Sequence record: LC620505.1
Length of the DNA: 64,000 nt
Reading direction: 5' to 3' (one strand)
From: Escherichia phage NiC89
Below the pieces are notes generated by a model. That model was not told the origin of the DNA. It searched no databases and saw nothing but the letters and a program-made list of their open reading frames with translations. Below are positions 4,504-62,537 of this stretch, piece by piece. Positions within the stretch are counted from its first letter, which is position 1. Each line of letters begins with the position of its first letter. The position numbers and the translations under genes are program-made.

Positions 4504-4869
4504 TTAAATATCAAATTCGTTAAGAACTACATCAAAGATTGCTTCAAGATGGTCAGGTTTAGCTCTGTTACTCAGAATATGACGAATCCAAGTTTTAACC
4601 AAAAGCTTGCGATTAACGCCATTCCAGCAAGGATGAGTCCCTAAATCGCGTTGACGGAAATCATCATCCAGAGCGATTTTGAAGTTTGAACCTTCCATTG
4701 TGATTGAAACCGTGATGCCATTTTCAAATCGCATATAAACGTAGTTAGGAGTCATATACTGTTCAATTTCGCATACTGATCCATTTTGATGTTTCCAAAG
4801 GCAAATAGTATCAATAGAACCTACAATACCATTAGAAACATATTTACGTTCAAAGTTGATGTAGTTCAT
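4504..4869 (-). CDS. hypothetical protein (121 aa)
   Basis: ORF track; early-promoter-like element upstream. Confidence 0.5.
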   Translation of the reverse strand: MNYINFERKYVSNGIVGSIDTICLWKHQNGSVCEIEQYMTPNYVYMRFENGITVSITMEGSNFKIALDDDFRQRDLGTHPCWNGVNRKLLVKTWIRHILSNRAKPDHLEAIFDVVLNEFDI

Positions 4870-4904
4870 TTTTATTCTCCGAGATGTTTAATTGCGGTAC
4901 AGGT

Positions 4905-4935
4905 ATATAATATCATATCCTGTACCAAAGTAAAC
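4905..4935 (-). promoter_or_regulatory. early-promoter-like element (GTTTAC -35, TATTAT -10)
   Basis: Minus strand GTTTAC at 4930-4935, about 17 nt spacer, TATTATA. Confidence 0.5.
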
Positions 4936-4937
4936 AA

Positions 4938-5270
4938 TTATTTTACTACTTTCCAATGTTGCATGTCAAGTTTACCAACTTTTTTCATCTTCTCAATTAA
5001 GCGTTCTGCACGTTGGCGAGCTGTAACATAATGCCATTCACCTAATTCATTTTGTTCAATTTTTCCAACGATTACTGTATTCAATTCATAAATCCAACCA
5101 GTAAAGAAATTATGAACTTGAATTGTAAAGGTGAAATCTGTTCCCATACCTTCTGTTGTTTCTACTTCAATAATATCACCTTCAACTGCCATTAAGAACC
5201 ACATAGTTTCATCATATTTACCGTTGAAGCATTTAGTTTTAACTGCAGCGTTCAGATTAATTGTTTTCAT
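4938..5270 (-). CDS. hypothetical protein (110 aa)
   Basis: ORF track; SD AAGGAG; promoter-like element upstream. Confidence 0.5.
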   Translation of the reverse strand: MKTINLNAAVKTKCFNGKYDETMWFLMAVEGDIIEVETTEGMGTDFTFTIQVHNFFTGWIYELNTVIVGKIEQNELGEWHYVTARQRAERLIEKMKKVGKLDMQHWKVVK

Positions 5271-58879: not shown

Positions 58880-59137
58880 TTAACCACCAATACCTGGAGT
58901 TGGCGTAACAGTCCAAAGACCTTCATTTGCAGTAATCCAATCAGCACGCTGATTTTCTTCATATACTGTTGAATATGCTGCTTTTTCTGAAGGAAATGTC
59001 TGATAATGAGCCCCAGAAATTTTGTGAACATCAGAATAAAGAGGGAAAGCTACAGAAATTTCTTTACCCTGAATTGTACCACCGTCAACTGCTTGGTCAA
59101 ATGTTTTAATATTAACATAACCGCGAGTACTAGCCAT
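58880..59137 (-). CDS. soc: small outer capsid protein Soc
   Basis: 85 aa, MASTRGYVNIKTF...KEISVAFPLYSDVHKISGAHYQTFPSEKAAYSTVYEENQR...; late promoter upstream and terminator downstream. Confidence 0.85.
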   Translation of the reverse strand: MASTRGYVNIKTFDQAVDGGTIQGKEISVAFPLYSDVHKISGAHYQTFPSEKAAYSTVYEENQRADWITANEGLWTVTPTPGIGG

Positions 59138-59153: not shown

Positions 59154-59363
59154 TTAAATTACATGATTATTTATAATAAATTCTCGCGGAACGTTAAAAT
59201 ATCCGATTTTAGTTAATATAACAACATCACCGTTAATAATTACCGGAGAATAATCTTCTGGAGCATTAAATTTCCAATGGGCTCTAATATTATATCCATC
59301 AGAACCAAATGCTCGAGTAGCCGGTCTCCCGGCTTTTTGCCACGCATAGAAATCAAATTTCAT
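59154..59363 (-). CDS. hypothetical protein (69 aa)
   Basis: ORF track. Confidence 0.45.
   Translation of the reverse strand: MKFDFYAWQKAGRPATRAFGSDGYNIRAHWKFNAPEDYSPVIINGDVVILTKIGYFNVPREFIINNHVI
59168..59175 (-). promoter_or_regulatory. late promoter TATAAATA upstream of soc
   Basis: Exact box on minus strand about 30 nt upstream of soc ATG. Confidence 0.65.
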
Positions 59364-59554
59364 TTTGAATGCTCTATAATTAATTTTAAAGCTTCTTCAC
59401 TGACAAAAATTTCGTCAGGACCTTCTATAACTTCAACCATACGAAGTTGATTAGTTAAGAGCTCACATACGAGCTCCTTGTTATAATCTTTAAATAGCTG
59501 GTCAATACGTTTCTTATGGGCTTTCTTAAGCTGACGCTTATTTAAACGAGCCAT
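59360..59554 (-). CDS. hypothetical protein (64 aa)
   Basis: ORF track. Confidence 0.45.
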   Translation of the reverse strand: MARLNKRQLKKAHKKRIDQLFKDYNKELVCELLTNQLRMVEVIEGPDEIFVSEEALKLIIEHSK

Positions 59555-60072
59555 TAATAACCTCGGTCTTGACGAGCGAAGTTTTCAGCATTTTTCAGGT
59601 AATAAAGTTTAAAGATTTCTTCAGCTGACATTCCAAGAGCAATAAATTTATTCATGAAAAAATGAAATTGGTCAATAAGTTCAAATTTAATTTCAAGCTG
59701 ATCTTCGGGAGATAAATCTTGAATTTTCTTGGATTGCATTTCAGAATAACGTTTCTTCCAAGGTTTCCATACAGCAGAAGCTTCTTTTTCGCCATTACTC
59801 ATACCACCAAGAGAAGTATATAACTCGCGGGTTTCATCTGCGATATAATCGTCTTGGTTTCGCAACCAAGCAAGAACTTCTCCTGCAGTTTCAAGTGAAT
59901 CAGGATGACGATTTGTTTCTGGTTTATCATTAGCCAAACGAATCTGTAAATGCCGCTGCATATTAAGCATAACCTGCAGTGGGTCAATATTGTGCATAAT
60001 ATTCTCAGCATATGCACGATTTGCTTTATCAACACCTTCGATCAAATGAGCACATTCATTAAAGTAAGCCAT
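59554..60072 (-). CDS. 56: dCTP pyrophosphatase gp56
   Basis: Trimmed to MAYFNECAHLIEGVDKANRAYAEN... with SD GAAAGGAAAAATA. Confidence 0.85.
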   Translation of the reverse strand: MAYFNECAHLIEGVDKANRAYAENIMHNIDPLQVMLNMQRHLQIRLANDKPETNRHPDSLETAGEVLAWLRNQDDYIADETRELYTSLGGMSNGEKEASAVWKPWKKRYSEMQSKKIQDLSPEDQLEIKFELIDQFHFFMNKFIALGMSAEEIFKLYYLKNAENFARQDRGY

Positions 60073-60106
60073 TATTTTTCCTTTCAATTCATGGGTTAGT
60101 AGATTA

Positions 60107-60131
60107 ATTATACAATAAATATATAAAGCAA
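60107..60131 (-). promoter_or_regulatory. middle (MotA-dependent) promoter candidate upstream of gene 56
   Basis: Minus strand reads TTGCTTTA (MotA box), 11 nt, then TATAAT. Confidence 0.5.
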
Positions 60132-60143
60132 TAAGGAGGACAT

Positions 60144-60344
60144 ATGGTACAAAAATTAATGGCACTTGTTAATGCCATAAAAGGTAATAAAAAACGTATA
60201 GCTTTTACTATTTCTGCTATGGTAGGAATTTTACTCTGGAACTTTATTCTATCACCTATTGCAATTGCACATGGTATTAATATTCCAGTAGTTACTCTTG
60301 ATACATTTGTAGATTTAGCATTTGCTTTAGTTGGGTTAATTTAA
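60144..60344 (+). CDS. small hydrophobic membrane protein (66 aa) on the opposite strand
   Basis: ATG preceded by GGAGG; two hydrophobic segments; no minus-strand ORF across 60144-60340. Confidence 0.4.
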   Translation: MVQKLMALVNAIKGNKKRIAFTISAMVGILLWNFILSPIAIAHGINIPVVTLDTFVDLAFALVGLI

Positions 60345-61369
60345 ATCTTAGCATATTTAGATAACCGCATTTTAGCCATCAACCCCTGGGCAATATTATT
60401 TTTCATATATTCCATAATTTGTTCAGGGGTTGCACCTTCCTTTCTAATCATATCATTAACATCTTTTGATTTCCAGGGAGATTTATCCCAAAACATAACC
60501 CTTTCTCCTGCATCAACTAATTTAGTCATTCGCTTGATAGTGTCAGGGTGACGAGGTTCATTATCTAAGACCCACACTCGTCTATCTTTAAATGGAACAA
60601 CTTCTAGGTCTAATTGACCACCCGTAATAGCTATACCATTTTCAATAAAAAGTGAATCTATAGGTCCTTCTAGAACATATACATCGCCATCTTTAACTCG
60701 TTCAACACCGTAAATTTTTGTTGCCTCAGGATAAGCTTTAATGGTGATATATTTTTGAGGAGCATCTTTCTTTAATGCACGTCCTTGAAAAGACTCAGCC
60801 TTTCCGTTAGCATTATAAATTGGAATAACAAGACGAGGCTCAGGTATTTCCTTTTTATATGTTCCCGGTACTATGCTATTAACCAATTTAGGCCATTCGG
60901 TTGTAAACCAAAGATATTTCCATTTATCCTTTGGAATACAACGAGCTTTTACATATTTTATAATTGGATGGTCTTCCGCCAGTTTATCTAATCTAACACA
61001 TGACGGAAGAGATTTAATTATTTTCTTCTCAGGTTGTTTAGGAAGTTCTTTAGGTTTTTCTACTGGACGACTTTTACCTTTTTCTTTTCTTATTTCAAAG
61101 ATATACTCACGATATAAATCAGGTTCAAACTCCTTTAAATATATTCCTATTGGTGCATGATAGTTACAGTTATAACAGTGAATATTTCCTTCATTATTAT
61201 CACCATAATACCATCCACGAGCTTTATTCTGGTCGGTTTTTGAATCTCCACAAACAGGGCATCTAAACCGCAATTTAAAAGTTGAACTATTATTTACTTG
61301 TGTGAATTTAGGTAAATGAGCTAATGCACGGTATGCAAACTCATTATCAATCCAAGGTATTGATGACAT
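60341..61369 (-). CDS. 61: DNA primase gp61
   Basis: 342 aa; zinc-binding CPVCGDSK...CYNCNYH motif. Confidence 0.92.
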   Translation of the reverse strand: MSSIPWIDNEFAYRALAHLPKFTQVNNSSTFKLRFRCPVCGDSKTDQNKARGWYYGDNNEGNIHCYNCNYHAPIGIYLKEFEPDLYREYIFEIRKEKGKSRPVEKPKELPKQPEKKIIKSLPSCVRLDKLAEDHPIIKYVKARCIPKDKWKYLWFTTEWPKLVNSIVPGTYKKEIPEPRLVIPIYNANGKAESFQGRALKKDAPQKYITIKAYPEATKIYGVERVKDGDVYVLEGPIDSLFIENGIAITGGQLDLEVVPFKDRRVWVLDNEPRHPDTIKRMTKLVDAGERVMFWDKSPWKSKDVNDMIRKEGATPEQIMEYMKNNIAQGLMAKMRLSKYAKI

Positions 61370-61536: not shown

Positions 61537-61582
61537 ATTAACCTCTATTCATAAAAGCATTAAAAATTTGGTCATCAATCGA
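61534..61582. repeat. direct repeat copy 1 (about 49 bp), 3' boundary of the 118-aa gene
   Basis: catattaacctctattcataaaagcattaaaaatttggtcatcaatcga. Confidence 0.8.
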
Positions 61583-61894
61583 TGGAATAGCAACTTTTTC
61601 TGCATCATTTAGCAAATCATTAATTTCATCAGATAGCATAACACATGTATCTTTATTTCCTGTAATTGTTACTGCGCAATTACGAACATTTTCTTTATTA
61701 AATTTTAGGTTAATATTTTCGTAATGAAAATCCTTTAATGCTGAATATATTTTTAAAATAAAATTGTCTTTTACTACAATAAACCCAACCTCACTATTAA
61801 AACGTGGCTCATGGAAACTGTAATAAACCTTTTCATCTATAAAATCGTATGAAATTTTTTCCATTTTTAAATATGAAAATTCAGAACTATACAT
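61538..61894 (-). CDS. hypothetical protein (118 aa), single-domain paralogue of the adjacent 213-aa ORF
   Basis: GFIVVKDNFILKIYSAL block and C-terminal SIDDQIFNAFMNRG shared with neighbour. Confidence 0.5.
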   Translation of the reverse strand: MYSSEFSYLKMEKISYDFIDEKVYYSFHEPRFNSEVGFIVVKDNFILKIYSALKDFHYENINLKFNKENVRNCAVTITGNKDTCVMLSDEINDLLNDAEKVAIPSIDDQIFNAFMNRG

Positions 61895-61940
61895 ATTAAC
61901 CTTTATTCATAAAAGCATTAAAAATTTGATCGTCAATAGA
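61892..61940. repeat. direct repeat copy 2 (about 49 bp, ~45/49 identical), 5' boundary of the 118-aa gene
   Basis: catattaacctttattcataaaagcattaaaaatttgatcgtcaataga. Confidence 0.8.
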
Positions 61941-62537
61941 AACTTTTACTTTAGGCTGTTCTTCAAACGGTAATTCATATCCACATATTACAATTTTGTG
62001 ATCGATACCAAAATACACAGAAGCAATATGATTAATATTATTTTCAGTGAAATCTAAATCAACATCAATATCTTTTTGACCACAGCCCAAAGGATAAATA
62101 ATGCGAGTAATTCGATTATCTTTAACAAATATTCCACCGACATACTCTGTGCTGCGTTTAAAGTCTACACGCCGACGAAATGAAAAATATTCAGGCTCTC
62201 TATGAGCTCGGCTCATAGGACACAACGAGTAACTAGAATAAGAGATGTCAAATCCTACGCCTTCAATATGAGCCAACGTGTCATGATTAAACCAATTATA
62301 ATCGTACGCCAAGTCCATTAGATTATAATATGTAAAAGGCACCGGATTAACATCATATGTTGTACCTTTAAAATCTGCCCAGGCAACGATTTCATTATCT
62401 TTAACAATTACAAAAATTGTGCCAATAAGATATCCACGGTTATTTTCATCAGGCGTTATATTATAACATTGTGCATCAGGAAATTTACCGTATTTAAACG
62501 GTGGATTTTTGTGCATATAATAAATCATATTATTCAC
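61896..62537 (-). CDS. hypothetical protein (213 aa) with internally repeated domain
   Basis: Two copies of a VKDN-containing block (TIFVIVKDNEIVAW, GGIFVKDNRITRII); C-terminus SIDDQIFNAFMNKG. Confidence 0.5.
   Translation of the reverse strand: MNNMIYYMHKNPPFKYGKFPDAQCYNITPDENNRGYLIGTIFVIVKDNEIVAWADFKGTTYDVNPVPFTYYNLMDLAYDYNWFNHDTLAHIEGVGFDISYSSYSLCPMSRAHREPEYFSFRRRVDFKRSTEYVGGIFVKDNRITRIIYPLGCGQKDIDVDLDFTENNINHIASVYFGIDHKIVICGYELPFEEQPKVKVSIDDQIFNAFMNKG

Follow-up and report, generated by a model that had tools for sequence, protein, structure and literature searches.

A conserved small gene with a T4-type late promoter element and a predicted inner-membrane product in the 56-61 interval of a dam-less T-even phage

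The DNA analyzed here (the window) is a stretch of 64,000 nucleotides from Escherichia phage NiC89 (LC620505.1), which comprises the early-gene arm of a T-even phage of the genus Tequatrovirus. The best database matches to the window were ~98% identical over 2.5 kb, and phage MLF4 showed ~96.6% identity over 25 kb. MLF4, the closest complete genome, which shares the interval between genes 56 and 61 with the window, was used for genome-wide checks. GenBank phage records served as the survey set, and a scan of IMG/VR yielded nine loci. The features of the 56-61 interval and its surroundings are listed in Table 1.

Table 1. Features of the 56-61 interval and neighboring genes; positions refer to the window.
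Feature	Position	Strand	Remarks
Gene order on the minus strand, read leftward	from 63384 (41)	minus	41, dmd, 61.4, sp, two 61.2-like, 61.1, 61, 56, two small ORFs, soc
soc	58880-59137	minus	
Gene 56 (dCTPase/dUTPase), T2-type allele	59554-60073	minus	ORF list and sequence
Predicted MotA-dependent middle promoter of gene 56	60107-60132	minus	predicted from sequence; homologous to P(M)16.53, which is the oriA primer promoter of T4
Junction	60113-60132		20 bp where T4 has 899 bp (dam and flanks; T4 locus L001, 2327-3225); blastn and side-by-side reading
T4-type late promoter element AATAAATA	60114-60121	plus	consensus TATAAATA, positions -13 to -6
Shine-Dalgarno sequence AGGAGG	60134-60139	plus	4 nt before ATG
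66-aa ORF, phrog_2024 member	60144-60344	plus	predicted bitopic inner-membrane protein
Intrinsic-terminator-like hairpin	60149-60178	minus	hairpin 60178 to 60159, 8 bp, loop of 4, then T-run
Gene 61 (DNA primase)	60341-61369	minus	97% nucleotide identity to T4 gene 61

Genes 56 and 61 are separated by 267 bp (60074-60340), in agreement with the about 270 bp given in an earlier note on this DNA. The true ATG of gene 56 is the complement of 60071-60073; the longer version proposed by the ORF lister begins with a GTG at 60165. Gene 56 showed ~75% nucleotide identity to its T4 counterpart, compared to 92-97% in the flanks (blastn), and its counterparts in close relatives are annotated as dCTPase. 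Based on the T4 map, gene 69 had been expected between 56 and 61. This expectation placed the gene in the wrong interval: gene 69 is now segF, located between 56 and soc, and the gene 69 of the 1984 record spans present-day 56 and segF (X01416). At 59154-60073 segF is absent and small ORFs (59154-59363 and 59360-59554) are found in its place, as in T2, which is the layout expected of a SegF-free, T2-type allele. A SegF homologue was not detected in the window by tblastn.

Upstream of gene 56, the minus strand harbors the MotA box ATTGCTTTA (60132 to 60124), followed by an 11-nt spacer and the -10 element TATAAT (60112 to 60107). In MotA-dependent promoters a sigma-70 -10 element follows ~12 bp after the box (a/t)(a/t)TGCTT(t/c)A, and there is no -35 element. 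In its box, spacing and -10 element, as well as in its homology to the annotated P(M)16.53, the window sequence agrees with this promoter class. The combined pattern of MotA box and -10 element occurred 13 times in the window, compared to 2.6 times in shuffled sequences (~5-fold). At the equivalent position of RB69 the middle promoter Pm:16038 was predicted (Nolan 2006, PMC1524935), and the fPS-2 record carries a 'predicted middle promoter' at the same place. According to the rep_origin note of the T4 record, P(M)16.53 is the gene 56/oriA promoter. The window sequence aligns with P(M)16.53 (Macdonald and Mosig 1984, X01416) and shares with it the ATTGCTT box, TATAAT and the distance to the gene 56 start, so that both the assignment of a middle promoter to gene 56 and the placement of the interval in the oriA neighborhood, as proposed in the earlier note, were upheld. 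The window spacer is one base shorter than that of P(M)16.53. The MotA box of T4 borders directly on the stop codon of dam, that of the window on the promoter and Shine-Dalgarno sequence of the putative late gene described below.

A second minus-strand element is the terminator-like hairpin (folding energy -8.4 to -8.9 kcal/mol), which would end the gene 61 transcript. It overlaps codons 6-12 of the plus-strand ORF, meaning that the same bases are terminator-like and coding, and it has also been annotated by other groups in SA21RB (TransTermHP) and fPS-2. The hairpin was present only in Tequatrovirus and absent from the other genera compared. It therefore cannot account for the wider conservation of the ORF, and a minus-strand terminator was rejected as the reason for this conservation.

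On the plus strand, the interval encodes the 66-aa ORF with the strong Shine-Dalgarno sequence that the earlier note had described. Its convergence on the gene 61 stop was likewise confirmed, as its TAA (60342-60344) overlaps the complement of 60341-60343, resulting in an overlap of 4 nt between the two genes at their stops. The same gene has been named dam.1 in T4T (ADJ39749.1), RB69ORF029w, VR7ORF033w and bas37_0144. Its product matched the phrog_2024 profile with an E-value of 1.4e-31 (residues 2-66 versus profile positions 1-65 of 65); the gene is already catalogued but uncharacterized. In tblastn searches, 694 phage records were found with the ORF and 920 with a divergent, IME523-type form, and an opposite-strand ORF at this place, considered unusual before, is thus ordinary for this group. 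Position and strand were kept in at least eight genera (Tequatrovirus, Mosigvirus, Gaprivervirus, Dhakavirus, Jiaodavirus, Mosugukvirus, Kanagawavirus and Moonvirus), and the same arrangement was found in T4T, T2, Bas41, Bas37, VR7, PhAPEC2, RB69, JS98, KPV15, PM2, IME523, PEi26 and NM4.3. Within Tequatrovirus, 63-66 of the 66 residues of the dam.1/phrog_2024 proteins were identical to the window protein, and bas41_0145 of FriedrichZschokke was 100% identical. The orthologues share with the window ORF the strand, the 4-nt overlap with gene 61, the Shine-Dalgarno sequence and an upstream ATAAATA. They differ from it in their upstream neighbor, which is dam in dam-carrying phages and the gene 56 promoter in the window, and otherwise in nothing of substance.

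The reading frame was open at 57-69 codons in every genus compared. Pairwise dN/dS values were 0.06-0.30 in Tequatrovirus, 0.09-0.44 within other genera and ~0.4 between genera, and variable sites at the first, second and third codon position numbered 9/2/12, 8/2/8 and 6/0/12. The family shares the motif W-N-x4-P-x-A-x3-G-x2-(L/I)-P-x4-(D/E), represented in the window protein by W32, N33, P38, A40, G44, I47, P48 and D53. W32, N33 and P38 were invariant across 30 members with 25-50% identity, and A40, G44, P48 and the acidic residue 53 were nearly invariant at this level of divergence. A Shine-Dalgarno sequence (AGGAGG, AGGAG or GGAGG) was kept in 14 of 14 lineages. By these comparative measures, the ORF is a real gene under purifying selection with a conserved position. 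It is nevertheless absent from the T4 reference annotation, where it falls into the gap between dam and 61 (NC_000866, 17626-17934), and it is also uncalled in JS98 (L017, 1201-1401), IME523 (L006, 1968-2177) and PEi26 (L020, 1180-1365). In VR7 (L004, 2201-2470), VR7ORF033w is directly followed by a second copy, an unannotated paralogue that belongs to the JS98/IME523 subtype (MGTLFYQIWKL...) and whose C-terminal part departs from the family and enters gene 61; this copy may be a decaying tandem duplicate or reflect a sequencing frameshift.

That dam is missing from the interval was confirmed, since a tblastn search of the 64-kb window with T4 Dam gave a best E-value of 2.2. When the interval was aligned with T4, the 899-bp dam-bearing stretch of T4 stood against the 20-bp junction, and the homology between T4 and the window restarted 13 nt ahead of the small ORF. 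The earlier note had proposed that the ORF is present instead of dam. However, T4, T4T, T2 and Bas37 possess this same ORF alongside dam, and the ORF accompanies dam in T6 as well. Besides dam and the small ORF, the interval holds an ORF of 181 aa in T2 and one of 61 aa in Bas37. As T4, T2 and Bas37 hold both genes, the small ORF is the constant element and dam the variable insert, and the ORF is no replacement for dam. The sequence features described in the earlier note are real, its observation as a whole was confirmed in part, and its reading is mostly wrong.

T4-type Dam (at least 90% identity) was detected in 182 phage records, compared to ~502 Tequatrovirus records containing the small ORF (at least 89% identity). 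About two thirds of the Tequatrovirus records are thus without dam; the dam-less layout is the majority state and the absence of dam is ordinary. In six other genera, gene 56 lies immediately or closely next to the ORF, with no dam. In Mosigvirus, Gaprivervirus, Dhakavirus, Jiaodavirus and Mosugukvirus the two genes are directly adjacent and divergent, which points to an insertion of dam within a part of Tequatrovirus; the dam-less 56-61 layout is probably ancestral. A relocation of dam to another place in the genome, which the earlier note had considered for relatives sharing the interval, was rejected for MLF4, the closest complete relative with this interval: a search of the complete MLF4 genome returned no Dam homologue at E ≤ 1, indicating that dam is truly missing rather than moved. 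No SegF homologue was found in MLF4 either.

The cargo that separates the middle promoter of gene 56 from the small, putatively late gene varies across relatives (L007, L040, L006, L020, L021 and L023). It consists of dam alone in T4 and of a MazG-like 94-aa ORF in Kanagawavirus and Moonvirus, and in fPS-2 a homing endonuclease gene is located on the gene 56 side of the middle promoter. The site between this promoter and the small gene looks like an insertion hotspot, and a recurrent point of cargo insertion would account for the pattern of dam presence and absence.

A T4-type late promoter element, AATAAATA, is located 22 nt ahead of the ATG of the ORF and inside the spacer of the divergent gene 56 middle promoter; transcription would start near 60127. 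Since the gene 56 promoter and not dam lies upstream, the late and the middle promoter interdigitate instead of being ~0.9 kb apart. On both strands of the window, 14 ATAAATA sites were counted compared to ~49 expected from composition. Six of these 14 are followed by a Shine-Dalgarno sequence and an ATG within 40 nt, namely those of alt, 34, 36, t, soc and this ORF, and the upstream element of the window holin gene t is also AATAAATA. In the MLF4 genome, 55 ATAAATA sites were found versus ~123 expected, and 25 of them were linked to a Shine-Dalgarno sequence and a start codon. Nearly all of the latter precede known late genes (36, 34, alt, 24, 22, 20, 19, 18, 15, 9, 53, e, 49, soc, t and others), and they include the site of this ORF. 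The variant AATAAATA also occurs in MLF4 ahead of t, 15, 49 and inh. As a side observation, ATAAATA is 2-3.5 fold under-represented in the window and in MLF4 (L026-L029), and its combination with a Shine-Dalgarno sequence and a start codon provides a simple and specific late-promoter finder in these genomes.

The element was retained among orthologues. In 13 of 14 representative phages, NATAAATA was found at a distance of 12-22 nt upstream of the ATG, despite flanks that could not be aligned; IME523 has an exact TATAAATA upstream of the ORF, and NM4.3 has ATTAAATA in place of ATAAATA. The T at position -13 is poorly conserved in T4-like phages (Nolan 2006, PMC1524935). In the same study an HMM scan of RB69 listed no late promoter at RB69ORF029w, which counts against the assignment. 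Our scans detected neither a sigma-70-like plus-strand promoter near the ORF nor a plus-strand terminator downstream of it. Based on a TATAAATA-type element that would give a short leader and is kept in orthologous positions, we infer that the ORF is a late gene. It resembles T4 late genes, and especially the holin gene t, in having the same AATAAATA element 18-22 nt before the ATG, an AGGAGG Shine-Dalgarno sequence and the late-gene orientation. For t late transcription is documented, whereas that of the window ORF is predicted from its promoter sequence. Literature searches on dam.1, on T4 ribosome profiling and small proteins and on late-promoter RNA-seq returned nothing on the ORF, and no transcript or protein data in any phage.

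The product had been described as a two-helix membrane protein. One clear transmembrane helix (~19-42, the hydropathy peak being at 19-42) is indeed predicted, but the second helix, with 12 residues of which two are Asp, is not long enough to cross a membrane. AlphaFold2, run with a 30-sequence alignment, gave a model with a pLDDT of 77 and helices at 2-12, 16-42 and 52-63. For RB69ORF029w one transmembrane segment was predicted at 21-41 (PMC1524935, supplement). Residues 1-18 contain five basic and no acidic residues (+5) and residues 43-66 two Asp and no basic residues (-2), which is why a single span with N-in/C-out topology is predicted. D53 and D57 lie on one face of the C-terminal helix, and in the model the span would be followed by a short, acidic, amphipathic helix in the periplasm. 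The amphipathic, basic N-terminus would accordingly reside in the cytoplasm, and the transmembrane helix would carry the invariant Trp-Asn and Pro, followed by the conserved G-x-x-(L/I)-P turn. Searches of Pfam, NCBIfam and PDB sequences with single sequences and the family alignment yielded only noise, and Foldseek against viral models returned only members of phrog_2024. A profile search of 1.84 billion representative proteins recovered only 21 clusters, of 33-99 aa except for one spurious long protein, and no domain fusions.

These lines of evidence are best accounted for by two back-to-back, interdigitated promoters in a common dam-less layout. On the minus strand, a MotA-dependent middle promoter homologous to the T4 oriA promoter would serve gene 56. 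On the plus strand, a gp55-type late promoter within the middle-promoter spacer would drive the 66-codon gene by means of a 17-nt leader and a strong Shine-Dalgarno sequence, and this gene would encode a small bitopic inner-membrane protein. We assign a probability of about 0.7 to this account. Dam-less phages would then have a late promoter within the oriA middle-promoter spacer, which would make them a compact natural example of DNA shared by two classes of promoters.

The role of the protein was approached by way of a transposon screen and of distant family members. In the HIDEN-SEQ transposon screen (bioRxiv 10.1101/2025.11.20.689424), bas37_0144 is classified as non-essential, with 20 of 24 TA sites hit, and the three host comparisons considered here gave log2 fold changes of +0.33, +0.20 and -0.28, none of them significant. 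Since bas37_0144 is identical to the window protein at 63 of 66 residues (95%), these data show for a close orthologue that the gene is dispensable in the laboratory. The tolerance of the Bas37 orthologue to transposon insertions argues indirectly that the protein is not the sole holin.

Family members found only by profile are located in siphophage-like contigs. The gene order there is a tail-tip protein, a TM/coiled-coil protein, endonuclease VII, the family member, a 180-aa protein belonging to phrog_1924 ('minor tail protein'-like) and a ~105-aa protein. In L034, L035 and phage DCP80 (L038) a T4-type lysozyme gene lies downstream on the same strand, with two genes between, whereas L033 has a tail chaperone and a tail protein there and no lysozyme. 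In L030, L033, the window and the T-even genomes, the family gene is unlinked to an endolysin. Two distant members weakly matched the holin families phrog_3427 and phrog_11161 (E = 5e-4 and 0.012). By its gene contexts, the family travels with late modules, in some cases shortly ahead of an endolysin, which fits late expression and lends weak support to a role in lysis. A tblastn search with the distant member P0131 found no match among cultured phages, and its 180-aa neighbor matched only DCP80. DCP80 (PQ671644, 18620-29129) is classified as Gaprivervirus with a genome of 141 kb and contains a lambda-J-like tail-tip gene, endonuclease VII and an endolysin; its family member is an unannotated 57-aa ORF (4792-4965). 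This arrangement was otherwise found only in uncultured siphophage-like contigs, and the DCP80 assembly may be chimeric.

A late accessory function in lysis control, holin-like or as a modulator of the holin but not as the main holin, is the leading guess but speculative, and we hold it to be possible rather than likely. With an Asn in the middle of the membrane, the protein would be able to pair in late infection with a further copy of itself or with a different membrane protein. Like small holins and antiholins with a single transmembrane domain, the window protein is small, has a basic N-terminus that would be cytoplasmic, one transmembrane domain and a putative late expression. The broader version, in which phrog_2024 is an unrecognized class of small late inner-membrane lysis accessories that could be either canonical-type holins of ancestral origin or proteins that partner with or modulate holin T, is unlikely. 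In such a case the T-even phages would share phrog_2024 with an uncultured siphophage-like lineage, in which the gene would head an operon ending in a T4-type lysozyme. If the protein were shown to act in lysis control, one of the most intensively studied lysis systems would gain a component.

Several findings argue against a role in lysis. The family has no relative in Pfam, NCBIfam or PDB, the T-even members show no significant match to curated holin families, and the name 'Holin' on one orthologue is an unexplained automatic label. The T-even ORF is not adjacent to e, t, rI or spanin genes, and the distant relative in L033 is followed by tail genes and no lysozyme. Holins usually have a charged C-terminal tail, whereas the C-terminus of the window protein is hydrophobic and acidic and lacks such a tail. 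Holin T, with 218 aa compared to 66 aa, has a large domain in the periplasm and cannot be lost without abolishing plaques, in contrast to the dispensable close orthologue of the window protein. Moreover, loss of the gene in Bas37 caused no measurable defect in the screen and the three host comparisons (HIDEN-SEQ, bioRxiv 10.1101/2025.11.20.689424).

The tail genes around the distant relatives (tail tip, phrog_1924, tail assembly chaperone and tail protein) could instead point to a late membrane protein with a function apart from lysis, either in virion assembly at the inner membrane or in protection of the envelope by superinfection exclusion or anti-defense. T4 head assembly begins at the inner membrane, one T6 record labels the ORF 'putative head morphogenesis protein', and the Bas37 data describe the gene as dispensable on the tested hosts, as accessory and anti-defense genes often are. 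We nonetheless consider this improbable. None of the three Bas37 host comparisons considered showed the gene to be conditionally essential, the T6 label is given without a stated basis, and homology to any assembly factor was not found. Furthermore, the T4 exclusion proteins Imm and Sp are encoded by early genes and not by late ones.

Due to the overlapping stops and the lack of a plus-strand terminator-like site behind the ORF, any transcript of the ORF would read antisense into gene 61, and this convergent arrangement is kept in all genera. The plus-strand transcript might therefore chiefly be an antisense RNA that starts at ~60127, extends into the 3' end of gene 61 and pairs with the primase mRNA, thereby helping to shut off or process early and middle messages late in infection, with the peptide being secondary. 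We regard this as very improbable, because conservation acts at the amino-acid level (dN/dS < 0.45, third-position changes dominating), W, N, P and G are invariant at 25-50% identity, the strong Shine-Dalgarno sequence is conserved, and distant relatives occur in unrelated surroundings that have no primase gene on the opposite strand. A functional protein and an additional antisense effect would not be mutually exclusive. Finally, the idea that the ORF is not a gene, its sequence being conserved as the 3' UTR and terminator of the gene 61 transcript near oriA with an incidental frame, could draw on the minus-strand hairpin within the ORF, on the missing gene calls in the T4 reference, JS98, IME523 and PEi26, and on the spurious 60-95 aa ORFs that occur in this AT-rich DNA, but it is hardly credible and already contradicted by the comparative data, as the hairpin is restricted to Tequatrovirus yet the frame is open (57-69 codons) in every genus, the substitutions are patterned as in a coding frame and the family profile picks up members in non-T4 phages.

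A gene common to at least eight T-even genera is missing from the T4 reference annotation, and this has a bearing on functional screens. The T4 guides of CRISPRi-ART were designed from NC_000866, and the T4 gene table used for HIDEN-SEQ (bioRxiv 10.1101/2025.11.20.689424) contains nothing between dam and 61. Because it is missing from both, neither screen scored the gene as a unit in T4. The transposon screen in Bas37 is the only functional datum that was found for a phrog_2024 gene.

Further upstream on the minus strand, two adjacent 61.2-like ORFs were noticed at 61538-61894 (118 aa) and 61896-62537 (213 aa). They are paralogues with 37% identity over 106 residues (E = 5e-11), and the C-termini of both read SIDDQIFNAFMN(R/K)G. 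In T4, 61.2 is single, and the additional 118-aa copy is also found in T2 and Bas41.
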